This document shows positions 14,447 through 55,798 of a DNA stretch of 64,000 nucleotides, one piece after another. The DNA lies in the NCBI GenBank assembly GCA_949287225.1, contig CASEFP010000110.1, positions 17,237 through 81,236 of the forward strand. The letters are read 5' to 3'. Below the pieces are notes generated by a model, which did not search any database, was not told where the DNA came from, and saw only the letters and a program-made list of their open reading frames with translations. The position numbers were made by a program, and so were the translations under genes. The DNA is from an uncultured Lentisphaeria bacterium. GTDB lineage: Bacteria > Verrucomicrobiota > Lentisphaeria > Victivallales > UBA1829. Numbering within the stretch: the stretch's first letter is position 1; each line of letters begins with the position of its first letter.

Positions 14447-16147
14447 TTATGTATATCTTAAGACTTCTTCCATTGTCGTTTCGCCGTTCAGGACAGCCTG
14501 GATCCCGTCCTCGCGCATGGTCACCATGCCGAGTTCACGCGCCTTGTCGCGCAGAACGACTGTCGGAGAACTCTTCATAATCAGATCTATCAGCTGGGAG
14601 TGCATGGTGAACATCTCCGTCAGCGCCTTCCGGCCCTTGTAACCGGTGTTGTTGCAGTTCTGACAGCCTTTGCCATAGTAGAACTTGTTGTCGCCGACAT
14701 CCGCGCGGTCAAGCCCGAGCAGCATCAGATCCTCGTCGGTCGGCACGAACGACGCCTTGCAGCGCGGACAGATCCGCCGGATCAGACGCTGGCCGATCAC
14801 TCCCTGAAGCGAGCTTGTAATCAGGAACGGTTCCACCCCCATGTCGATCAGACGCGTCACCGTGCCGGCCGCATCGTTCGTGTGCAGGGTACTGAACACA
14901 AAATGCCCGGTGAGAGAGGCTTCCACAGCCATGCGCGCAGATTCCAGGTCGCGGATCTCTCCAAGCATGATGATATCCGGGTCCTGACGGAGAAAGGCGC
15001 GGAGCGCACGGGCAAACGTCATCCCGATCGATTCGTTGATCGGAAGCTGAATAATACCTTCCAGGTCATATTCGACCGGGTCTTCCGCAGTCAGAATCTT
15101 GTCCTCGGTCTTATTGATCTCCTTCAGGGCTGAATACAGCGTCGTCGTTTTCCCGGAACCGGTCGGACCGGTCACAATGAAAATTCCGTTCGGAAGCTGA
15201 ATGATATCGCGGATTTTCGCCAGATTTTCCGGACGGATGCCGAGCGCGTCCAGATCCAGATTCACAACAGACCGGTCCAGCACGCGGAGCACCACCGATT
15301 CACCGAACTGCGTCGGCAGCGTCGAAACGCGCAGATCAATGGGTTTGCCTCCGACTTTAAGCTGAATACGGCCGTCCTGCGGACGACGGCGCTCGGCAAT
15401 ATTCAAGCCGCTCATGATTTTGACACGGCTGATCACGGGAATGGCAAGATTTTTCGGCGGCGGCGCCATTTCATAAAGCGCTCCGTCAATACGGCAGCGG
15501 ATCTTGAACTCTTTTTCAAACGGTTCAAAGTGAATATCGGAAGCCTTGTCCTTGATAGCCTGATACATCACCGCGTCCACGAACTTGATGATCGGCGCCT
15601 CATTCGCCTGCGCCTCCAGTTCATCCGCGCTCTGCTCGGCTTCCTCTTCCTTGACTTCCGTATCCAGATTCAGTTCGGCCAGCATGTCGTGCATCGTGGT
15701 TGTCACGTCAACCGGATAGAATTTCTCAATTGCCGATTCCACCTGGGATTCCGGCACCACGATCTGATTCACATCCTTGCCGACGATGAAACGGACTTCG
15801 TCCACCACCTGATAGTTCAGCGGATCGCGGAGCATGATGCTGAGCGTGGTCCCGTCAAAAGCCATCGGAACGACGCCAAGCATCCGCGCCGTATCGCCGT
15901 CAATCATTTTGATGACCTCCCACGGCGGATCCTCTTCAAGCCCGACAGCGCGAACCTCAAGCCCGAGGTTTCTGCCGATCGCCTCCAGAATGTCCATCTC
16001 CGTCAGGAGTCCGAAATCGACAATCACTTCCTTGAGCGATTTGCCGTTGCGCTCCTGCTCCTCCTCCACCTCCTTCATGTGTTCTTCACTGATGAGGTTT
16101 TCCCCGAGCAGGATATCTTTCAAGGTCTGGCTTTCGGAATCAAGCAT
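14447..16147 (-). CDS. pilB: GspE/PilB-family secretion ATPase (paralog 2)
   Basis: 566 aa. N-terminal T2SSE_N-like domain, Walker A GPTGSGKTT, Asp box, Walker B IIMLGEIRD, His box FSTLHTND, tetra-Cys CPRC...CQNC. Confidence 0.93.
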   Translation of the reverse strand: MLDSESQTLKDILLGENLISEEHMKEVEEEQERNGKSLKEVIVDFGLLTEMDILEAIGRNLGLEVRAVGLEEDPPWEVIKMIDGDTARMLGVVPMAFDGTTLSIMLRDPLNYQVVDEVRFIVGKDVNQIVVPESQVESAIEKFYPVDVTTTMHDMLAELNLDTEVKEEEAEQSADELEAQANEAPIIKFVDAVMYQAIKDKASDIHFEPFEKEFKIRCRIDGALYEMAPPPKNLAIPVISRVKIMSGLNIAERRRPQDGRIQLKVGGKPIDLRVSTLPTQFGESVVLRVLDRSVVNLDLDALGIRPENLAKIRDIIQLPNGIFIVTGPTGSGKTTTLYSALKEINKTEDKILTAEDPVEYDLEGIIQLPINESIGMTFARALRAFLRQDPDIIMLGEIRDLESARMAVEASLTGHFVFSTLHTNDAAGTVTRLIDMGVEPFLITSSLQGVIGQRLIRRICPRCKASFVPTDEDLMLLGLDRADVGDNKFYYGKGCQNCNNTGYKGRKALTEMFTMHSQLIDLIMKSSPTVVLRDKARELGMVTMREDGIQAVLNGETTMEEVLRYT

Positions 16148-16177: not shown

Positions 16178-17887
16178 TTATTCCGCATCGCCGATTGTTG
16201 TTGCAATCACTTCGGAAAGGGTTGTTATGCCCGCAGCCGCCTTCCGGAGGCCGTCCTCGCGAAGCGTCATCATACCGCCTTTGCGCGCAGCATCGCGGAT
16301 GATGTCGGCGGAGCATTTCGTGTAAATCAGATGCTGAATCTCCTCGCCGACCTGGAAAATCTCGTAAATGCCGAGGCGCCCCTTGTAGCCGGTGCCGCCG
16401 CAGACCGGGCAGCCTTTTCCCTTGAACAGAGTTGCCGTGTCCATGAACTTTTCATCCAGCCCCAGAAGACGGATCTCGTTCGCCGTCGGCGTTGTCGGTT
16501 CCATACAGTTCTTGCAGACGCGCCGCAGCAGGCGCTGCGCCATGATCGCCTTGACCGCCGACGCCACAAGGAACGGCTGCACGCCCATATCGATCAGACG
16601 CGTCACCGCGCTCGGCGCATCGTTCGTGTGCAGCGTGCTGAAGACAAGATGCCCCGTCAGCGATGCGTTGATCGCAATCACCGCCGTTTCCATGTCGCGG
16701 ATCTCGCCGACCATGATGATGTTCGGCGCCTGACGAAGCATCGCGCGCAGCGCGTTGGCAAAGGTCATCTTCGCAAGCGGATTCACCTGCACCTGGTTGA
16801 TGCCGGCAAGCTGATACTCCACAGGGTCTTCCACCGTGATGATCTTGCGGTTCGGCGTGTTGATCGTATTCAGAAATGCATAAAGGCTGGTGGTCTTTCC
16901 GGAACCTGTCGGGCCTGTCACGAGGAACACGCCGTCGGGCATGTTGATGATCTTGTTGATCTTTGCCTGGTCGTCCGCATAGAAGCCAAGCTGCGGGATT
17001 TCAAGCTGAATACTGGCTTTTTCCAGAATTCGCATGACGATACTCTCTCCGTGCGTCGTCGGAATGGTTGAGACGCGCAGGTCGATGTCGCAGCCTTTCA
17101 CCCGGAGCTGAATACGGCCGTCCTGCGGCAGACGCTTTTCGGAGATATCCAGCTTGGACATGATCTTGACACGGCTGGTGATGTTCGCCTGAAGATATTT
17201 CGGAGGACTCTCCATCACACGGAGCGCGCCATCGACCCGGTAGCGGATGCGGTAGGTCTTTTCCAGGGGCTCCAGATGAATATCCGAAGCGTGCAGCTTG
17301 AACGCCTCGACGATAATCAGTGTCACAAGCCGGATGATCGGAGCATCGTCCTCATTGGCTCCGCCTTCCTCGGCGGCCTCCTGCGCCGCCTGTTCCACGG
17401 CTTCCATTTCCCCCATCTCCTCGATGAACGCGTTGACGGCGGCTTCCTGCGTGGAATAGTATTTGTCCATGACAGCCCGGATCTGATCCATCGGGGAAAT
17501 AACGGCATCAACATCGCATTTCAGCAGAAAACGGATGGAGTCTAGCGTTGCCATATCGGTCGGATCGCTCATGGCGATGGTCAGAACATCGTCGTGCTTC
17601 ATGACAGGAACAATCTTATACTGATGCACAATATCGCGCGGAACGGTTTCAATCACCTCGGGCGGAATCCGGTAGGTGGAAAGGTCCAGAACTTCCAGAC
17701 CATACTGCTGGGCGAGCATGGAGATCATTTCAAGTTCATCGACGTATTTGAGTTCCTTCAGCGCGTCGATGATATTAATCTGACCGTCTTTCTCGGCTAC
17801 TCTCTTCCAGCCCTCACTGACCTGCTCCTCCGTGACCATCCCGTTCTCCTGGAGCAGTTCCAGAATAAAGTCAGTGTTTTGCGCCAT
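16178..17887 (-). CDS. pilB: GspE/PilB-family secretion ATPase (paralog 1)
   Basis: 569 aa with the same architecture: GPTGSGKTT, IIMVGEIRD, FSTLHTND, CKNC...CPVC. Confidence 0.93.
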   Translation of the reverse strand: MAQNTDFILELLQENGMVTEEQVSEGWKRVAEKDGQINIIDALKELKYVDELEMISMLAQQYGLEVLDLSTYRIPPEVIETVPRDIVHQYKIVPVMKHDDVLTIAMSDPTDMATLDSIRFLLKCDVDAVISPMDQIRAVMDKYYSTQEAAVNAFIEEMGEMEAVEQAAQEAAEEGGANEDDAPIIRLVTLIIVEAFKLHASDIHLEPLEKTYRIRYRVDGALRVMESPPKYLQANITSRVKIMSKLDISEKRLPQDGRIQLRVKGCDIDLRVSTIPTTHGESIVMRILEKASIQLEIPQLGFYADDQAKINKIINMPDGVFLVTGPTGSGKTTSLYAFLNTINTPNRKIITVEDPVEYQLAGINQVQVNPLAKMTFANALRAMLRQAPNIIMVGEIRDMETAVIAINASLTGHLVFSTLHTNDAPSAVTRLIDMGVQPFLVASAVKAIMAQRLLRRVCKNCMEPTTPTANEIRLLGLDEKFMDTATLFKGKGCPVCGGTGYKGRLGIYEIFQVGEEIQHLIYTKCSADIIRDAARKGGMMTLREDGLRKAAAGITTLSEVIATTIGDAE

Positions 17888-26088: not shown

Positions 26089-26337
26089 GATTTCCCCTCC
26101 ATTTGATGGATCTGTAATTTAACTGTGAAGGTTTTCTTTTTCAAACGACGGGAGTTTGGATTTTGGGAAAAGATGGGAGATTGGTAAACATCAAAGGATA
26201 AAATTTATCATAAAAAAAGACGGCAAACTTGTTTGCCGGGTGCAGGTGTCTCACACCTGCCGCGGAGTGTGAGGGCGCGGAGCCCTCACGTTCTTAAAAG
26301 TTTTTCATTTGCGCACACAGTTGCGCAAATGAAATTT

Positions 26338-26406
26338 TTATTTCGCGCGTTGCACGACCAGCTTACGCAGCTGGACCGCACCAGGACTGAGAGGAGAGCA
26401 CAAAAC
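26338..26406 (+). repeat. conserved intergenic element, copy 1 (+)
   Basis: TTTTTATTTCGCGCGTTGCACGACCAGCTTACGCAGCTGGACCGCACCAGGACTGAGAGGAGAGCACAAAAC. Core hairpin CCAGCT-TACGC-AGCTGG at 26358-26374. The 3' side runs into the stop codon of the 26426..27505 gene. Confidence 0.9.
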
Positions 26407-26425
26407 ATAATTTGCAACGCCGATT

Positions 26426-27505
26426 TTATTTCCCGCAATATTTCCGGAAGACCTCGTAATATCCGGGCTTGATCATGTCCATCCCGTTGCAGACGGAGAG
26501 GCTATCTCCGCCCGCAGAAAGTATCGTCCTGAGCTCCTCCTCCAGAAGCGCGGGAGACTTTGCGGCGAGACTCGTTCCCGGAAGCGCTTTGAGCCCGACA
26601 AAGGGAATCCCTTTGACACCCTTGTGGTATTTTTCCGCGTCGTTCACGACAATCCTCGTATAGCGGATGATTTTTTCCTTGTCCCAGGGAAAATACCACG
26701 CGACCGTCTGGGCGCAGTAATCGGTTTTCGTACGGTTCCCATAAAGCGGTTCGGGCAGGAATGTCGGATAGATGTGCGCATGCACAACGGCTCCGGGATG
26801 TTTTTTCTTCACATAGCCGATCACCTTATTGTAATAATCCACAAGCGCGTCACGGAAAAATTCTTCGCGGGAAAGTGACGGATTTTTCCGCTTCGCAGAT
26901 TCAAACTTCCGCGTGCAGCTTTCACAGCGGCAGTCCTTGAAATTGGTGTATCCGAGATAGTCCAGATAGATTCCGCGCGCACTCGGCACCTTTGCAAACA
27001 GATCATCTATTTTCTTCCGGGAGAGAACAAGTCCTTCATCACTCAGGAAACAGGCAATCCGGAAGCTGTTGAGGACATCCGGCGCTGTCACAGGTTCGCC
27101 GCCGTAACGGTGACATTTTGCCGTGCGCCGCGCATCAACCACTTTTTCCCGTTCCTTCCGGGGCAGCGTTTTCAGATCGTCTCCGTTGAGATAGGCGAAA
27201 AGTTTCTCCTCTTCCGGCGTCATCACCTGACCGTGCGGTCCGCACGGCAGAAAAACCGAGCAGCAGGGAATCATCCCGTATTGCAGGGCGAGACGGGCCT
27301 CTTTTTCATTCGTCGCTGCAATATGGGTGACACCGATTTCACGGAATTTCCTCGCCGTCTCCCCGCTTGTCGGCCGTCCCCAGGAGAAAACCTCCTTGAA
27401 TTTCCTTTTTTCTCCCGCTTCATCCTGTCCCCCGGAAAACGGAGCACAGGAATTCAGGAACAGACAGAAAAACATGCCCGCAAAAAATAGTTTTTTCAGT
27501 TTCAT
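26426..27505 (-). CDS. hypothetical lipoprotein (possible glycoside-hydrolase-like TIM barrel; Cys-rich CRCESC motif)
   Basis: Start at the internal ATG 27505 (RBS AGGAAGTGGAA). Signal peptide and lipobox MKLKKLFFAGMFFCLFLNSC. No confident family. The gene is bracketed by copies of the intergenic element. Confidence 0.7.
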   Translation of the reverse strand: MKLKKLFFAGMFFCLFLNSCAPFSGGQDEAGEKRKFKEVFSWGRPTSGETARKFREIGVTHIAATNEKEARLALQYGMIPCCSVFLPCGPHGQVMTPEEEKLFAYLNGDDLKTLPRKEREKVVDARRTAKCHRYGGEPVTAPDVLNSFRIACFLSDEGLVLSRKKIDDLFAKVPSARGIYLDYLGYTNFKDCRCESCTRKFESAKRKNPSLSREEFFRDALVDYYNKVIGYVKKKHPGAVVHAHIYPTFLPEPLYGNRTKTDYCAQTVAWYFPWDKEKIIRYTRIVVNDAEKYHKGVKGIPFVGLKALPGTSLAAKSPALLEEELRTILSAGGDSLSVCNGMDMIKPGYYEVFRKYCGK

Positions 27506-27543: not shown

Positions 27544-27694
27544 TCCCGGCACAGAGCACGCGCCCGTATCGGGGATTTCGCCTCCGGCGATCAGCTTGCG
27601 CAGCTGGACCGCACCTGGACTGAAAAAAAGAGCACGAATCATAATTTGCGTTGCAAATTATTTTTTAATTGCGCAGCTTCGCGCGCTTTTTTTT
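27544..27694 (+). repeat. conserved intergenic element, copy 2 (+), with two trailing hairpin/T-tract modules
   Basis: TCCCGGCACAGAGCACGCGCCCGTATCGGGGATTTCGCCTCCGGCGATCAGCTTGCGCAGCTGGACCGCACCTGGACTGAAAAAAAGAGCACGAATC. This is followed by hairpin ATAATTTGC-GTT-GCAAATTAT plus T5 (27641-27666), then a GCGC...GCGC hairpin plus T8 (27671-27694). Confidence 0.9.
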
Positions 27695-27806
27695 ATTTCG
27701 CCTCCGGCGACCAGCTTGCGCAGCTGGACCGCGGCAGGACTGAGAGTCCTGCACGAAGCATTTTTGGCGATGCAGAGCATCGCAATATGAAACTCACTTT
27801 TTTCAA
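27695..27806 (+). repeat. conserved intergenic element, copy 3 (+), directly abutting copy 2 and the TatD-like stop codon
   Basis: ATTTCGCCTCCGGCGACCAGCTTGCGCAGCTGGACCGCGGCAGGACTGAGAGTCCTGCACGAAGC. Core hairpin at 27711-27727, 120 nt after that of copy 2. Followed by hairpin GCGATGC-AGA-GCATCGC and TATGAAACT..TTTTTT. Confidence 0.9.
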
Positions 27807-28640
27807 TCAGCGCTGAAATTCCTCAATCCGCATGGGCTGAATGTCGAATTCAGGTTTCCAGTTGGACGAGGCGGAATAAAAACGGTTCGGGTTGTCGAAC
27901 AGAATTCTGTTGACCGATTCCGGAGAGTGCCCGGACTGCTCCATGAACCGGGCGGTTTTCACCAGACTCAGCGGATCGGAGACCCCCCAGTCCGCGGAAC
28001 CGTCCACAATCATGCGCTCGGAACCGTATTCATGAATCAGCGCGGAAACACGCGCCGGATTCAGTTTGGAGACCGGATAGACCGTCATCCCCGTCCAGCA
28101 TCCCGTCTCGCGTGCCTGTTTCATGCACACCTCGGTATTGTGGTCGATCAGCACTTTCGTCACGTCGATCCCCTCGTTCCGGATGATGTCGGCAGTCCAC
28201 TCGATCCCCTTTTCCTTGTTCTGATGCGGCAGATGGATGATGACCGGCATGTTTTTCCTGTGCGCAATCGCAAGCTGACGCTCGAATGCCGCGCGTTCGT
28301 TTTTCGTGATATTGTTCAGTCCGATCTCGCCGAGCGCGACACAGCGCGGATGATCCAGATACGCCTCGATGCCGTCGATCACCTCGTTTGCCAGAACCGT
28401 GTCCTCAGCCTCCTTCGGATTCAGCGCAATCGCCGCGTAATGGTCGATCCCGAACCGGCGCGCGCGGACGGTTTCAAATTCCAGAATCAGCTGAAAATAG
28501 TCAAAAAAGGTTCCGGCGTAACGGCGGTTGCATCCCATCCAGAACGAGGGCTCGACACAGGCGCGGATCCCTTCGCGGAACATCGCCTGATAATCGTCGG
28601 TCGTGCGGGAATACATGTGAATGTGCGGTTCGATGATCAT
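27807..28640 (-). CDS. TatD-related metal-dependent hydrolase (TIM-barrel amidohydrolase superfamily)
   Basis: 277 aa. N-terminal MIIEPHIHMYSR (HxH), GEIGLN, IIHLPH, LIDHN, VDGSADWG. Metal-ligand pattern of the TatD/COG1099-type hydrolases. Confidence 0.8.
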   Translation of the reverse strand: MIIEPHIHMYSRTTDDYQAMFREGIRACVEPSFWMGCNRRYAGTFFDYFQLILEFETVRARRFGIDHYAAIALNPKEAEDTVLANEVIDGIEAYLDHPRCVALGEIGLNNITKNERAAFERQLAIAHRKNMPVIIHLPHQNKEKGIEWTADIIRNEGIDVTKVLIDHNTEVCMKQARETGCWTGMTVYPVSKLNPARVSALIHEYGSERMIVDGSADWGVSDPLSLVKTARFMEQSGHSPESVNRILFDNPNRFYSASSNWKPEFDIQPMRIEEFQR

Positions 28641-29027: not shown

Positions 29028-29141
29028 GAAAAATCCTCCCGGATAAAAAAATGCTTCGCGCTTTCCTCTCCATCCTGCCGCACGCCGGAAGCGCAAGGGT
29101 GCCGCGGCAGGCGAAATCTCCTGAGGTCCGTCTGCCGCACT

Positions 29142-32540: not shown

Positions 32541-32695
32541 CCCCGGTGCAGAGCACACACCCGTATCGGGGATTTCGCCTCCGGCGACCAGCTTGCGCAG
32601 CTGGACCGCACCGGGACTGAGAGGAGAGCACGAAACGGTTCTCGCGATGCTCTGCATCGTTGTATGAAACTGATTTTTTGAATCAAACACCTCAC
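32541..32695 (+). repeat. conserved intergenic element, copy 4 (+)
   Basis: CCCCGGTGCAGAGCACACACCCGTATCGGGGATTTCGCCTCCGGCGACCAGCTTGCGCAGCTGGACCGCACCGGGACTGAGAGGAGAGCACGAAAC. Core hairpin at 32588-32604. Followed by hairpin CGATGC-TCT-GCATCG and TATGAAACTGATTTTTTGAATCA. Confidence 0.9.
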
Positions 32696-43341: not shown

Positions 43342-44019
43342 ATGGCAACACCTCTGGAAATGACGCTCTGCTATGGTTCGGCGGTCGTGATTCCGTATCT
43401 GATCGGCGCAGTCCCGTTCGGATTTTTGATCGGGAAGATGAAGGGGCTGGACATCCGGACGCAGGGCAGCGGAAACATCGGCGCGACGAACGTCACGCGC
43501 GTAATCGGGAAGAACTGGGGAAGGCTCTGTTTCGCGCTGGATCTGATGAAGGGCATTCTGCCGGTTCTGCTGGCCGCGCTTCTGGTGCGGCACGGATTCC
43601 GGGAGGATCCATACGGGATTCTGCCGTCGCTGGCCGCGCTAAGTGCCGTCTGCGGGCACATCTATCCCGTCTATCTGCGCTTTCACGGCGGGAAGGGGAT
43701 CTCCACCGCGGCGGGCGCGATTCTTGCGCTGAATCCGCCGGCGCTTCTGTCCGCCGGCGTGGTATGGGCGGCGGTCTTTCTTCTTTCACGCTATGTTTCG
43801 CTGGCAAGCATTCTGGGCGCCGTCTCTCTTCCCGTGTTTGCGTGGATCATGAAACTTGCCGGCGTCTGGAACAGCTCCGCAACGGAGATGGTTCTCTTCT
43901 GCGCGCTTGCCGTGCTTGCCGTATTGCGGCACACATCCAACATCAAACGGCTGCTCAGCGGCACGGAAAGCAGGTTTGTCAAAAAGGAAAAATCCCCGGA
44001 AAACAAGGAGGTACAATGA
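43342..44019 (+). CDS. plsY: glycerol-3-phosphate acyltransferase PlsY
   Basis: Start at ATG 43342 (RBS GGAG). IPFGFLIGK, GSGNIGATNV, KG..P, HIYPVYLRFHGGKG. The stop overlaps the gpsA ATG (ATGA). Confidence 0.92.
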   Translation: MATPLEMTLCYGSAVVIPYLIGAVPFGFLIGKMKGLDIRTQGSGNIGATNVTRVIGKNWGRLCFALDLMKGILPVLLAALLVRHGFREDPYGILPSLAALSAVCGHIYPVYLRFHGGKGISTAAGAILALNPPALLSAGVVWAAVFLLSRYVSLASILGAVSLPVFAWIMKLAGVWNSSATEMVLFCALAVLAVLRHTSNIKRLLSGTESRFVKKEKSPENKEVQ

Positions 44020-45026
44020 ATCGCGCCATTTCAAAAATCACGGTTCTCGGCGACGGCGCCTGGGGAACCTCCCTTGCCCTTGTTCTGCTCTGGAACGGAC
44101 ACAACGTGACCTTGTGGGGGCCGTTCCGGGAGAATATCGACGCCATCAACGCGACAGGCGCTAACAAGTTCCTCAAAGGAATCACTCTTCCGAAAGAACT
44201 GCATGCGGAAGCGGATATCGCAAAAGCCGTCGCGGATGCCGATCTGCTGGTTCTCGCCTCGCCGTCGCAGTATATGCGCAAGACGCTGGAGGCGCTCAAG
44301 GCGCATTTCCGGAAGGATCAGCACCGGCTGCTGGACATCGCCAAGGGGATTGAGACCGCTTCCTTGAAACGCATGAGCGAAATCTGTGCGGAAATACTCG
44401 GAGAGAGCCGTTACGCCGCATTGTCCGGCCCGAGCCATGCCGAGGAGGTGTCGCGCAAGGTTCCGACGGCGGTCGTGATCGCCTCGCACGACATGGAGCT
44501 GGCATTGGAACTTCAGAATCTCTTCATGAACGAATTTTTCCGCGTCTACACTTCCGACGACCTGACCGGGGTGGAACTGGGCGGCGCGCTGAAGAATGTC
44601 TACGCGATCGCCTGCGGGATGATCGACGGCATGGGGCTCGGAGACAATCCGAAGGCGGCGCTGATGACCCGTGCGATCGCGGAAATGAGCCGTCTCGGGG
44701 TAACGCTCGGCGGACGGGCGCAGACCTTCTCCGGGCTGAGCGGCGTCGGGGACCTGATCGTGACATGCATGAGCCGCCACAGCCGGAACCGGTATGTCGG
44801 CGAGGAGCTCGGGAAGGGGCGCGGAATCGACGAGATCATCCGTTCGATGGGCATGGTGGTCGCCGAGGGGGTGAAGACGTCCGAATCCATGTATGCGCTG
44901 GCGCGGAAGGCGGGAGTCGAGACCCCGGTAGCGGACGCCACTTACGGGATACTGTATCAGGGCAAGTCTCCGGCGGACGCGGTGCGGGAGCTCATGACGC
45001 GCAGAGCCCGCCACGAGAGCGAGTGA
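44016..45026 (+). CDS. gpsA: NAD(P)H-dependent glycerol-3-phosphate dehydrogenase
   Basis: Start at ATG 44016 (RBS AAGGAGG). KITVLGDGAWGTSLA Rossmann motif, SGPSHAEEV, GALKNV, SRNRYVGEELGKG. Confidence 0.92.
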   Translation: MNRAISKITVLGDGAWGTSLALVLLWNGHNVTLWGPFRENIDAINATGANKFLKGITLPKELHAEADIAKAVADADLLVLASPSQYMRKTLEALKAHFRKDQHRLLDIAKGIETASLKRMSEICAEILGESRYAALSGPSHAEEVSRKVPTAVVIASHDMELALELQNLFMNEFFRVYTSDDLTGVELGGALKNVYAIACGMIDGMGLGDNPKAALMTRAIAEMSRLGVTLGGRAQTFSGLSGVGDLIVTCMSRHSRNRYVGEELGKGRGIDEIIRSMGMVVAEGVKTSESMYALARKAGVETPVADATYGILYQGKSPADAVRELMTRRARHESE

Positions 45027-53694: not shown

Positions 53695-55266
53695 TCAGAT
53701 GCTTTTTGCAATCACATAAGTCGGCAGGCCGGAAACATCAAATTTCTTCAAAGTATTTTTTACTTCCGGATTCGTCATGTCCGTTGCGTCGAATTTTATA
53801 AAAATGAACTGCTTCAATTCATTCTGAACCGCAGGATCCCGGAACGTGGTCTGATCCATCGCCTTGCAGTTCTTGCACCATTCGGCATGAAAATCTATAA
53901 AGACAGATTTCCCTGTTTTCGCCGATTCCCGGAACGCGTTTGTCAGAGCATCCATATTTTTTTCGACGTTTTCACGACTTTCCGCAAGGGAAGCATAGAT
54001 TGTAATTCCCATATATCCATAGTAGAGTCCGACGATCATGATGATGATCCCGAACGCATACTTTACATATTTCATCCAGACGCCCGGTTTCGGCATGACG
54101 GAAAATCCAGCCGCCGCAATCGGCCACGGAAGTCCCATTCCGATGCCGAGCACAAACGGAAGAATCAGGCCGATATGTTCACCGGAATTGTACATTTTCG
54201 ACGCCTGAAGCAGGGCCGCCACCACCACCGGCGCAACACAGGCGCCCGCAAGAACCGCCGCAACGACACCCATCAGAAAAATGCCGATGATCTTTGCGCC
54301 GGACGGCATTTTGAATCCGGCGCCATAGCGGGAAAAGTCGAGCAGAAACACATCGAAAAGCGAGAGACCAAGCAGAAGAAAGATCACCGCGACAACCGCG
54401 TTGAACCACCAGGTAGAGTCGATCACGCCGAAGCTGGATCCGGTCAGCACCACGATCAATCCCAGAAGTCCGTAGGCCAGCGCGATGCCGAGTCCGTAGA
54501 CAAGTCCTTTGGACATGCTTGCAAGCCGGTGCTCTTTTCCCGTGTCCGCGCCGATGATCGCAAGATTGATCGGGATCATCGGCAGCACACAAGGCGTCAG
54601 GTTCAGAGCGATGCCGCCAAGGAACGTCAGAAGCAGAATCAGAAGAAAACTTTTGTCCGCAAAGCTCAGGAACATTGCGCCTTTTTCTCCTTTCAGGAAA
54701 GAAAGAAACAGATCCGAAGCCATGTATCCGGATTCCGTGCGGAGAATTTCAAACGCGGGAAAATCCGTTGATTTTTCTGCTGCTTCCGCCTCGGATGCAA
54801 CAACCTTTTTCTCCATCAGCGGAACCGGTGTATCGAACGGAACAGATTCCGAAAGCGTGTATTGCCTGTCTTCCGGGAAATAGCAGGTTGGCTCGGAATC
54901 TCCGGTTGCTTCGGAACAGCCCTGCCAGGAGAGTTTTAGTGTCAGCGGGAACTCATTTTGTCTGATCGGGAAAACCCATTGAAAATCAGATGCACCCCGG
55001 AAAACATCAATTTTTCCGAATATTTTATCTTCGTAAGAAATGGCGGCAGGTTTTTTCAGAGGGGACAACTCTTTCCCGTTGGAGAAAAGAGTAACTTTTG
55101 TGGCGTTTTCATACAGATAAAAATGTTCTTTTACGGAAACTGTTACGGTAAGTTCCGCCTGATGCAGAATATAAGACCATTGAAAGGCATTTTTCGCATC
55201 CGCGCCGGAAAGATGGAACAGAATACACAGAAATGAGAAGAAAAGAAGATTCCGCAATGTTTTCAT
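53695..55266 (-). CDS. dsbD: thiol:disulfide interchange protein DsbD
   Basis: Start at the internal ATG 55266 (RBS AAGGGGGA). The track's upstream extension runs into the repeat element. Signal peptide, N-terminal DsbD-alpha-like domain (WQGCSEATG...C), central TM domain with CVLPMIP and GACVAPV, C-terminal thioredoxin HAEWCKNCK. Confidence 0.9.
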   Translation of the reverse strand: MKTLRNLLFFSFLCILFHLSGADAKNAFQWSYILHQAELTVTVSVKEHFYLYENATKVTLFSNGKELSPLKKPAAISYEDKIFGKIDVFRGASDFQWVFPIRQNEFPLTLKLSWQGCSEATGDSEPTCYFPEDRQYTLSESVPFDTPVPLMEKKVVASEAEAAEKSTDFPAFEILRTESGYMASDLFLSFLKGEKGAMFLSFADKSFLLILLLTFLGGIALNLTPCVLPMIPINLAIIGADTGKEHRLASMSKGLVYGLGIALAYGLLGLIVVLTGSSFGVIDSTWWFNAVVAVIFLLLGLSLFDVFLLDFSRYGAGFKMPSGAKIIGIFLMGVVAAVLAGACVAPVVVAALLQASKMYNSGEHIGLILPFVLGIGMGLPWPIAAAGFSVMPKPGVWMKYVKYAFGIIIMIVGLYYGYMGITIYASLAESRENVEKNMDALTNAFRESAKTGKSVFIDFHAEWCKNCKAMDQTTFRDPAVQNELKQFIFIKFDATDMTNPEVKNTLKKFDVSGLPTYVIAKSI

Positions 55267-55289: not shown

Positions 55290-55415
55290 TAAAAATTGCG
55301 CACGAAGCCGCGCAAAAAAAATAATTTGCAAAGCAAATTATGATTCGTGCTCTCCTCTCAGTCCTGCCGCAATCCAGCTGCGTACGCTGGTCGCCATAGT
55401 CGAAATCTCTCCCCT
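55290..55415 (-). repeat. conserved intergenic element, copy 5 (-), with the same two trailing hairpin/T-tract modules as copy 2
   Basis: The reverse complement reads ...GGGGAGAGATTTCGACTATGGCGACCAGCGTACGCAGCTGGATTGCGGCAGGACTGAGAGGAGAGCACGAATCATAATTTGCTTTGCAAATTATTTTTTTTGCGCGGCTTCGTGCGCAATTTTT. The AGAGCACGAATCATAATTTGC..GCAAATTATTTTTT block is essentially identical to copy 2. Confidence 0.9.
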
Positions 55416-55488
55416 GGCGGCACTTCCACCCGCTAAAGGACGAGAAGCGCTTCTTCGAGAACCGCCGGTACACTGCATAACCTCGGGA

Positions 55489-55581
55489 ATAAGCCCGGAG
55501 CTCTCGTGGTCAGGTAGTATGAATGAGGCGAAAAAATGCTTACGCATTCTTTCGCCTCAATGGATAAGCCCGGAGCTCTCG
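55489..55581. repeat. 18-nt direct repeat ATAAGCCCGGAGCTCTCG x2 flanking a 12-bp-stem hairpin
   Basis: Copies at 55489-55506 and 55564-55581, a 75-nt period. Between them lies GAGGCGAAA(A)AATGC-TTAC-GCATTCTTTCGCCTC. Further hairpins GAACTTTTCC-GAT-GGAAAAGTTC and GAGCGG-TCTGAA-CCGCTC follow. Confidence 0.85.
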
Positions 55582-55633
55582 AACTTTTCCGATGGAAAAG
55601 TTCTCGTCACTGAGCGGTCTGAACCGCTCCGGG

Positions 55634-55728
55634 CGGGGGATTTCGCACTTCGTGCGACCAGCTTACGCAGCTGGACCGCGCAAGGGTCAGTGACCCTTGA
55701 CCCCGAGAAGAATGCATGCGCATTCTTC
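55634..55728 (+). repeat. conserved intergenic element, copy 6 (+), inverted relative to copy 5
   Basis: GGGGGATTTCGCACTTCGTGCGACCAGCTTACGCAGCTGGACCGCG. Core hairpin at 55658-55674. Followed by hairpins CAAGGGTCA-G-TGACCCTTG and GAAGAATGC-ATGC-GCATTCTTC. Confidence 0.85.
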
Positions 55729-55732
55729 CGTT

Positions 55733-55776
55733 AAAAAAATCCCCGCTTGCACGGAGTTTCCGGCGGAAGCGGGGAT
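55733..55776 (-). terminator. intrinsic terminator after the Gfo/Idh/MocA gene
   Basis: On the minus strand: ATCCCCGCTT...AAGCGGGGAT, a 10-bp stem (55739-55776), followed by T7 (complement of 55733-55739). Begins about 23 nt after the stop. Confidence 0.75.
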
Positions 55777-55798
55777 TTCAGTCATCAAGTGTAAAAAA

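Follow-up and report, generated by a model that had tools for sequence, protein, structure and literature searches.

The closest described counterparts of the repeat analysed here are the REP (repetitive extragenic palindromic) sequences, bacterial interspersed mosaic elements (BIMEs) and REPINs (REP doublets forming hairpins) of Enterobacteria and Pseudomonas, the last of which are moved by RAYTs (REP-associated tyrosine transposases). The repeat lies in a 64,000-nt stretch of contig CASEFP010000110.1 (assembly GCA_949287225.1, positions 17,237 to 81,236; hereafter the window) from an uncultured Lentisphaeria bacterium of the order Victivallales, where a reading of the sequence alone (the original prediction) had noted six copies of an intergenic element and offered a REP/BIME-like element, a MITE (miniature inverted-repeat transposable element) or a multicopy small RNA (sRNA) gene with its own terminator as candidate explanations. 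Our analysis shows that the element is a unit of three consecutive hairpins, and that it belongs to a previously undescribed repeat family that behaves like REP/BIME, REPIN and BOX elements. On balance, we consider it probable that these units form an extragenic, hairpin-forming, mosaic family of selfish DNA repeats with an incidental terminator function. The anatomy of the unit can be read from the aligned copies, and its mobile-DNA mechanism is deduced from how the repeats behave.

As in REP, BIME and REPIN systems, the copies are numerous, strictly extragenic and hairpin-forming, and are arranged in mosaics of alternating orientation with linker modules; they often lie near gene 3' ends or between convergent genes, vary in number between related genomes, include inverted doublets of fixed spacing, and have stems that are kept by paired changes. 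A REP unit, however, is one palindrome of 20-40 nt, whereas the unit described here spans ~65 nt and has three distinct hairpins. In REPs, one end of the palindrome bears a conserved tetranucleotide, GTAG or CGTC (Di Nocera et al. 2013; PMC3733652), but neither stands beside any hairpin in the two structural alignments used below (A2 and A4), in which (G/A)ATTT forms the 5' flank and CG opens hairpin 1. No RAYT was found in ~1 Mb of repeat-bearing loci, open reading frames (ORFs) flanked by units have no Pfam transposase domain, the doublet spacer measures 219-509 nt rather than the few bases of a REPIN, and, whereas REP classes are lineage-specific, the core here is kept across Lentisphaerota and a Ruminococcus lineage. 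Of the original candidates, a REP/BIME-like element fits best: it agrees with the high copy number, extragenic position, modularity, alternating orientation and variable copy number of the family, and disagrees with its three hairpins and missing GTAG/CGTC tag, and no RAYT was found in the sampled loci.

BOX elements of Streptococcus pneumoniae (boxA-boxB(n)-boxC) resemble the family in their interchangeable sub-elements, variable module number, intergenic position and predicted stable stem-loops; each reaches ~100 or more copies, and no dedicated transposase is known for either. Sequence and host phylum are unrelated, however, and BOX folds through boxA-boxC complementarity instead of three local hairpins and has no invariant central hairpin. 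Enterobacterial repetitive intergenic consensus sequences or intergenic repeat units (ERIC/IRU) and the Correia elements of Neisseria, which are imperfect, MITE-like palindromes with lengths of 100-160 bp, match the composites or type-A units described below roughly in size, lie in intergenic or 3' untranslated regions in either orientation, and can serve as terminators or RNA-processing sites when transcribed. They differ in forming one long hairpin from terminal inverted repeats and in duplicating a TA target, whereas the arms here are strings of short hairpins and no duplication was found. Multicopy sRNA families share the compact stem-loops followed by a hairpin and T-run on one strand, but here no promoter was detected, copy number is far higher, tandem arrays and mosaics occur, orthologous sites differ in presence and absence, and there is no excess of G·U pairs. 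Three covarying hairpins, a near-invariant 25-nt core common to a Ruminococcus lineage and conserved head-to-head pairing are an unusual combination among small bacterial repeats, and together they point to a conserved, putative trans-acting partner.

Anatomy of the three-hairpin unit

A scan of the window with the 17-nt core CCAGCTTGCGCAGCTGG, allowing up to two mismatches, gave six matches (26358, 27591, 27711, 32588 and 55658 on the plus strand and 55374 on the minus strand) against 0.05 expected, and none of 100 shuffled sequences reached six. Exactly the same copies, each with an expect value (E) of at most 4e-8, were returned by a covariance model (R1) that was built from 53 distinct copies and run on the window without filters, which confirms the positions originally given. 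All six are intergenic and are spread over four gaps in both orientations, as predicted; ORFs of at least 150 aa make up 89.5% of the window. The proposed check for restriction to intergenic DNA gave six copies between ORFs. The next model match (44304-44371, plus strand; 13.9 bits, rough E 0.01) lacks the core sequence, lies within a long ORF (43764-45026) and is probably a chance match in apparently coding sequence. A decayed seventh copy (Table 1) was missed by R1 and by the original prediction of at least six copies. This relic retains the GATTTCGCC start and the GCGAAGCATTTTTTT end of the unit, and its hairpin 2 is destroyed. The pairing of copies 5 and 6 in one composite, described below, had also been overlooked.

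When 84 copies were lined up and parsed, the unit (~64-70 nt) was found to consist of 5'-(G/A)ATTT, hairpin 1, a single A, hairpin 2, an ACCGCG linker, hairpin 3 and a final AC. Hairpin 1 starts and ends with CG and has 4-7 bp, a loop of 3-4 nt and a free sequence; hairpin 2 is nearly invariant (CCAGCT-TRCGC-AGCTGG); hairpin 3 has 7-8 bp, again with a 3-4-nt loop and a free sequence. The hairpin CCAGCT-TGCGC-AGCTGG that had been taken as the invariant core is present in the copies, as are its G/A loop variation and two T·G wobbles in copy 2, one in hairpin 2 (TCAGCT...AGCTGG) and one in the left-hand CCCCG...CGGGG stem, while the two further covarying hairpins of each unit had escaped notice. 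Between subfamilies, hairpins 1 and 3 are wholly unlike in sequence with pairing retained. Variants of hairpin 1 include CGCC/GGCG, CGTGC/GCACG, CGCAC/GTGCG, CGCTCTC/GAGAGCG and CGCCTGT/ACAGGCG, and those of hairpin 3 include GCAGGACT/AGTCCTGC, CAAGGGTC/GACCCTTG, CGAGCTG/CAGCTCG and CCAGGTGG/CCACCTGG. Hairpin 3 is broken (…GGACTGAGAGGAGAGCAC) in a recurrent subfamily that includes four of the six copies in the window.

In the hand-made structural alignment A2 (53 distinct copies), 94.8% of cells are paired against 20-37% when the partners are slid, and both sides change in 13 of the 21 pairs; in the model-based alignment A4 (87 distinct copies), which takes in copies that the search pattern could not have picked, the corresponding values are 96.2%, 23-38% and 16 of 21, both alignments being derived from, or fitted to, the structure under test. 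The gap to the slid controls is far larger than alignment bias could produce. Hairpin 2 itself covaries in A4 (CCAGCG/CGCTGG, CCGGCG/CGCCGG and CCAGCC/GGCTGG), and the aligned sequences support all three predicted hairpins by paired changes. The covariance model suggested with the original prediction as a check accordingly yielded paired changes at 16 of 21 base pairs and no more copies in the window.

Three covarying helices with conserved unpaired joints, kept in distant lineages, would also suit a new catalytic or ligand-binding class of RNA, such as a self-cleaving ribozyme carried on a selfish element, and the unit is multicopy and repeat-associated, as are many bacterial self-cleaving ribozymes. 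Rfam 15 gave no matches at gathering thresholds over the whole window, and permissive scans of the repeat regions (E ≤ 10) gave sub-threshold noise (best rsmX, 22.6 bits against a threshold of 56), so that neither a ribozyme nor a riboswitch of Rfam was matched. The core sequence occurs in no paper of the searchable literature, which likewise describes no Victivallales repeats, and the earlier view that this is no named RNA family stands. Inspection of the parsed and model alignments found no conserved closing helix or covarying pseudoknot, the hairpins being simply consecutive. Since the common subfamily has a broken hairpin 3 and the pairs show no G·U strand bias, we give this explanation very little credence.

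Modules, composites and turnover

Around the core stand interchangeable accessory hairpins (L, R, T1, T2 and the C-arm end), most of which end in a T-run on the core's strand. The L module (TACCGCGATGC..GCGCGGTA) is related to the R module (GCGATGC-AGA-GCATCGC plus a T-run), and the C-arm end hairpin follows the consensus GAARAATGC-N3-4-GCATTYTTC. L, R, T1, T2, C-end and a further module, E, are combined in varying orders, and both head-to-head pairs and tandem arrays are seen. The region of copies 2 and 3 in the window runs L, core, T1, T2, core, R, and copy 4 runs L, core, R. Several details of the original prediction were confirmed here, namely the tandem cores 120 nt apart (27591 and 27711), the tail common to copies 2 and 5 (ATAATTTGC-NNN-GCAAATTAT-T6, then GCGC...GCGC-Tn) and the contact with the TatD stop codon (Pfam PF01026), which the right-hand module adjoins.

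Module E, beside copy 1, is a separate three-hairpin repeat that is unrelated to the core unit. Its hairpins include GCAGGTGTGAGACACCTGC, a T-run follows GGCAA..TTGCC, and it stands twice in tandem in a related metagenome-assembled genome (MAG; L053, 6290-6500), a recurrence which indicates that these genomes hold more than one hairpin-repeat family.

In its fullest form the repeat is a head-to-head pair of units, ~430 nt long in this lineage. Copies 5 and 6 make up one such composite (55304-55740), the whole of which recurs at 75-82% identity in at least 12 other loci. Towards its centre each arm continues for ~110 nt with another two hairpins, and one of these has an equal position in both arms and differs in sequence and length. 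Head-to-head spacing is 219-234 nt in 15 pairs of the window lineage, 412-509 nt in a Ruminococcus MAG and in a Victivallaceae MAG of 62% GC content, and 27, 75, 130 and 147 nt in metagenome examples; inverted pairing is a conserved trait of the repeat family. The Ruminococcus version is an element of ~680 bp with inverted arms of ~300 nt. A small protein running through the composite was considered (a 71-aa ORF in the window, with similar ORFs in L017) and rejected, as the frame is broken by 2-nt differences in hairpin length and a 1-nt offset between copies.

Composites of fixed size whose inverted arms recur at this identity in more than 12 loci, the long-armed Ruminococcus element and the frequent breakage of contigs inside the repeat would fit conventional transposon ends or derivatives, with the head-to-head pair being a MITE with long structured inverted arms that is moved by an insertion sequence (IS) transposase encoded elsewhere in the genome. 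However, no target-site duplication was found at the composites of L048 and L005 or at type-A units, beyond sequence that possibly belongs to the unit, and the element has ragged outer ends with no sharp boundary. Pairs are no commoner than single units, tandem arrays and mosaics of mixed modules, no transposase was found between or beside the arms, and no IS with ends related to the units was present in the sampled loci. The MITE candidate of the original prediction, for which neither a target-site duplication nor a related autonomous IS was found, is not upheld, and we regard a conventional transposon origin as decidedly unlikely.

Orthologous sites differ in their repeat content. The gap between the TatD gene and the gene for a 359-aa protein measures 301 nt and holds two units in the window, compared with 78 nt and no module in two relatives whose TatD proteins are 94% and 92% identical to that of the window (in one relative, identity of the downstream protein is 77%). 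The 78-nt gap of the relatives is wholly different in sequence, so the ends of an insertion and its target cannot be defined there. An exact look-up of the TatD protein returned only a scaffold with an equal 301-nt gap and a contig that ends in the repeat. Between two Victivallales MAGs, the orthologous loci L019 and L008 have two units and one, respectively, with the lone unit pieced together from parts of both; the orthologous arrays L031 and L018 have five units and four. Together, the empty sites, the differences in unit number and the decayed relic point to turnover, which favours a repeat that acts at the DNA level.

DNA-level and RNA-level evidence

The stems are 96% Watson-Crick, and their mismatches (30 G·T against 22 A·C, p = 0.33) favour neither strand, so that the wobble-pair count gives no decisive strand assignment; both strands also fold with equal energies. 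In RNA helices, G·U is normally accepted much more readily than A·C. Given this tolerance, the finding that G·T is no commoner than A·C, with G·U pairs in ~1.3% of cells, speaks for a DNA-level repeat.

Flipped accessory loops were seen in units of the same orientation with unchanged stems (AAG/CTT, AAA/TTT and AGA/TCT in T1; AAC/GTT and ATGC/GCAT in the C-end hairpin). They occur at T1 and C-end hairpins in L018, L023, L025, L031 and L064 and, within the window, between the R loops at 27767-27783 and 32644-32660; the R loop is AGA in 17 units, including copy 3, and TCT in window copy 4. Inversion of a loop between unchanged arms is expected from template switching in a DNA hairpin (quasi-palindrome mutagenesis), and the flipped loops suggest hairpin-templated inversion at the DNA level. 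Template switching also transfers a change in one arm to its partner, and would in this way produce "compensatory" pairs without selection on RNA. The family is a caution for RNA-motif discovery, as strong "covariation" stands here alongside DNA-level signs (Watson-Crick stems, G·T/A·C symmetry and flipped loops), and a DNA-level mechanism can yield paired changes in the absence of RNA selection.

We propose that the units multiply and move between intergenic sites as DNA. Their hairpins would form in single-stranded DNA, where the invariant hairpin 2 and its unpaired flanks would be recognised by a putative trans-acting enzyme, and the stem arms would be kept complementary by hairpin-templated repair (template switching), with paired changes and flipped loops as by-products. 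Local copy number would shift when adjacent units recombine. Insertions between genes are probably rendered harmless by the terminator-like hairpins, which point outward and, on read-through, may incidentally give termination or 3'-end protection.

A number of observations weigh against a selfish DNA repeat. Core loops and unpaired linkers are never flipped and have a fixed polarity; T-run modules always lie 3' of the core, on its strand; and T2 passes a terminator scan on the unit's strand. Loops typical of stable RNA hairpins, C(UGCG)G and C(UUCG)G, occur in the Ruminococcus copies, which also show, by eye, a plausible -35/-10 pair (TTGCTC/TTGTTT and CATAAT/TAATTT, 16-18 nt apart), while in the metagenome locus L097 each of two convergent genes is followed by a sense unit a few bases past its stop codon. 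On the side of mobility, no transposase or RAYT was found in ~1 Mb of sampled repeat-bearing loci, no empty site with alignable flanks was found (at the TatD locus the whole 78-nt gap of the relatives differs), and target-site duplications were absent as described above; the dependence of A2 and A4 on the tested structure is a limit of the analysis. Finally, identity of a 25-nt core across phyla is unusual for a selfish repeat and suggests that there is a conserved binding partner, protein or RNA.

The strand-specific features on this list (T-run modules always 3' of the core, unflipped core polarity, the UNCG-type loops and possible promoter of the Ruminococcus copies, and the sense units of L097) would suit transcribed RNA modules used by the host, in which core and terminator make up the structured 3' end of read-through transcripts, or a free RNA of ~100-200 nt, and either shield it from exonucleases or bind a conserved RNA-binding protein through hairpin 2 and ACCGCG. 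Such modules would also agree with the maintenance of the core in contigs of 32-60% GC and with the bias in co-directional gaps: by crude longest-ORF gene calls, 31 of 63 units lie between convergent genes, 21 between co-directional genes (15 sense, 6 antisense) and 11 between divergent genes. By these calls, units prefer gene 3' ends, as REP-like elements do. However, a scan covering the sigma-70 type only found no such promoter upstream of any window copy, and the 110-nt tandem units of L064 leave no room for one. Of the six window copies, three run antisense to both neighbours and two are sense, with one of each in the composite; hairpin 3 is broken in four of the six; and G·U pairs, as noted, are rare and not commoner than A·C mismatches. 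The element is absent at orthologous sites of close relatives, and it would be uncommon for an sRNA family to reach dozens to hundreds of copies in a genome. The sRNA gene of the original prediction is weakened by the missing sigma-70-like promoter, the dozens of copies per genome, presence and absence at orthologous sites and the lack of G·U strand bias; the one-stranded terminator-like hairpins and fixed core-loop polarity speak in its favour. We consider host-used RNA modules a serious but unlikely explanation. The GC skew of the window is flat and offers no basis for a comparison of replication strands.

Returning to the selfish DNA repeat and its putative enzyme, ORFs near the repeats were clustered all-against-all, first in 65 genome loci plus the window and then in 38 metagenome loci, and only expanded paralogue families of the PVC (Planctomycetes-Verrucomicrobia-Chlamydiae) group emerged (DUF1559/N_methyl, AraC and GFO_IDH_MocA). 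The ORFs enclosed by inverted units (218 aa in L019 and 570 aa in L017) have no Pfam match. As neither an enzyme, nor a duplication, nor an alignable empty site was found, we infer mobility from distribution and turnover only.

One match drew attention to IS110-family elements, which are guided by bridge or seek RNA: the core could be a preferred target of such an IS or a fragment of its non-coding RNA region. The exact 24-nt hairpin 2 core occurs in a scaffold of Allobaculum stercoricanis (L039, 2032-2087, minus strand), the only match outside the two host groups among the matches listed, where it sits in non-coding sequence at the 3' side of an element of the IS110 family (PF01548/PF02371) that itself lies in a group II intron. 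By our estimate, ~0.07 chance matches would be expected across the genome collection. According to a passage in PMC12288879, IS110-family elements target REP sequences, and one carries an sRNA gene that is also present as solo copies. Against such a link, hairpins 1 and 3 are absent from the Allobaculum site, which scores only 20 bits with R1; related IS copies, in three sets (L066-L078), occupy the identical intron site and lack the core; and none of 65 other sources (64 repeat-bearing loci and the window) has an IS110-family gene. We treat the Allobaculum core as a coincidence or a captured fragment, and a role for IS110-family elements is highly improbable.

A further possibility cuts across the other readings. 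Hairpin 2 is kept across Lentisphaerota of 41-62% GC and the Ruminococcus lineage, between two freely covarying hairpins, and with its GA and ACCGCG flanks it could, though we rate this as rather unlikely, be the recognition element of an unrecognised conserved system that handles nucleic acids. This may be a cross-phylum, hairpin-specific mobilisation enzyme distinct from RAYT/IS200, or a new structured RNA class (protein-binding or catalytic) carried on the repeat.

Distribution and further features

A 24-nt degenerate core, searched for in one representative genome per species across 185,579 species, gave at least 65 loci, and among the matches listed nearly all came from Victivallales/Lentisphaeria MAGs, together with one "Ruminococcus sp." MAG. 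Across 470 kb of these loci, R1 found at least 114 copies, including at least 47 in the Victivallales MAG CALXSJ, at least 42 in the Victivallales MAG CALXRI, at least 14 in the Ruminococcus MAG, at least 6 in a Victivallaceae MAG and at least 3 in a Lentisphaeria MAG. In metagenome contigs, a gapped-pattern scan followed by filtering with R1 added 50 copies in 38 contigs of 32-60% GC, among them human-gut and fermentation metagenomes, and these copies brought many further sequences for hairpins 1 and 3. Several of the contigs (two at 41% GC) encode DUF1559/N-methyl prepilin-like proteins, which are typical of the PVC group, and on the strength of these neighbours the repeat family appears to span Lentisphaerota.

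The Ruminococcus assignment of the other host holds for the contigs of that MAG: they have 49.7% GC, and homologues of a GalE beside one element are named only Ruminococcus, Oscillospiraceae or Clostridiales. A dockerin guessed by eye in a neighbour of the Ruminococcus copies was not confirmed by Pfam. The 25-nt core is identical in Lentisphaerota and the Ruminococcus lineage; the surrounding arms are unrelated, and only the three-hairpin core is common to both. Plasmid and phage collections contained no similar DNA, and a search of viral contigs with the main core pattern found nothing. A viral carrier was considered on account of one partial match to a hairpin 2 variant pattern (14.8 bits), which was dismissed as weak.

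The repeat is a frequent cause of assembly breaks in these genomes. Many MAG and metagenome contigs stop inside or beside it (L012, L037, L055, L063, L065, L207 and others); L207 (contig ERR10610561_32339) encodes an identical TatD protein and ends 56 nt past the stop codon. Lentisphaerota, and Victivallales in particular, are common, almost uncultured bacteria of the gut and rumen whose non-coding DNA has so far gone undescribed. The family fills many of their intergenic gaps as well as breaking metagenome assemblies and, with terminator-like hairpins beside housekeeping genes, it bears on genome annotation and expression.

The neighbours of the units are unrelated, ordinary housekeeping genes. 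Pfam analysis indicated a chromate transporter, the unassigned 359-aa protein, a TatD-family hydrolase (PF01026), an MlaA-like protein, a phosphotransacetylase, Maf, a DsbD-like protein and a GFO/IDH/MocA oxidoreductase around the repeats of the window, whose coordinates are given with those of the accessory modules in Table 1.

Table 1. Repeat units and accessory modules in the 64,000-nt window (MFE, minimum free energy)
Feature	Position	Strand	Score or evidence
Module E, separate three-hairpin repeat beside copy 1: GGCAA..TTGCC, GCAGGTGT..ACACCTGC, GTGAGGGC..GCCCTCAC	26200-26290	+	
T2-like terminator hairpin and T-run directly upstream of copy 1	26303-26338	+	Terminator scan: 13-pair stem, then TTTTTATTTC
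Core of copy 1 (hairpins 1-3) with a broken, GGAGAGC-type hairpin 3	26339-26404	+	R1 35.4 bits, E 1.3e-9
Degenerate T1 hairpin, overlapping the stop codon of the 359-aa gene (26426-27505, minus strand)	26407-26427	+	
L module hairpin CCCGG...CGGGG ahead of copy 2, homologous to L of copy 4 and to TACCGCGATGC..GCGCGGTA of type-A units elsewhere	27544-27573	+	
Copy 2 core, T·G wobble in hairpin 2, hairpin 3 broken	27574-27641	+	R1 37.4 bits, E 3e-10
T1 module ATAATTTGC-GTT-GCAAATTAT, then T6; recurs after B/D-type units in many loci	27641-27667	+	
T2 module TTGCGCAGCTTCGCGCGC, then T8; intrinsic-terminator-like	27669-27695	+	Terminator scan match
Copy 3 core, hairpins 1-3 all intact	27694-27757	+	R1 54.2 bits, E 1.3e-15; MFE fold recovers hairpins 1-3
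R module GCGATGC-AGA-GCATCGC, then T-run; abuts the TatD-family stop codon at 27807	27758-27806	+	
Decayed seventh copy (relic), with the MlaA-like gene on one side and a 127-aa ORF on the other	29047-29117	-	Repeat search: 73% complementarity to copy 3 over 71 nt
Copy 4, complete type-A unit (L, core 32571-32638, R), between the Pta and Maf genes	32541-32685	+	R1 38.9 bits
Copy 4 R hairpin, flipped TCT loop	32644-32660	+	
T2 (55298-55315) and T1 (55321-55341) downstream of copy 5, just upstream of the DsbD-like gene start at 55266	55290-55343	-	
Copy 5 core, B arm of the composite	55344-55407	-	R1 30.9 bits, E 3.7e-8
Composite centre, 231 nt: two CCGGAGCTCTCG boxes, extra hairpins of each arm, variable AT-rich middle	55408-55638	.	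Alignment of 12 composites
Copy 6 core, C arm of the composite	55639-55704	+	R1 52.5 bits, E 4.5e-15
C-arm terminal hairpin GAAGAATGC-ATGC-GCATTCTTC	55705-55745	+	

The 127-aa ORF beside the relic gave a weak, sub-threshold Lar-like Pfam match. A long hairpin (55735-55795; AAAAAAATCCCCGCTT...AAGCGGGGATTT), flanked by an A-run and a T-run, stands between the composite and the GFO/IDH/MocA stop codon and looks like a bidirectional terminator outside the repeat family. Elsewhere in the window, a 99-nt tandem repeat of four to five copies (2263-2757; 64-89% identity to the reference copy) lies in ORF 1714-2817 and presumably encodes a repeated protein domain, while the adjacent minus-strand genes at 14447-16147 and 16178-17887 are paralogues whose proteins cluster together and which have segments of 201 nt and 52 nt in common at 71-78% identity.

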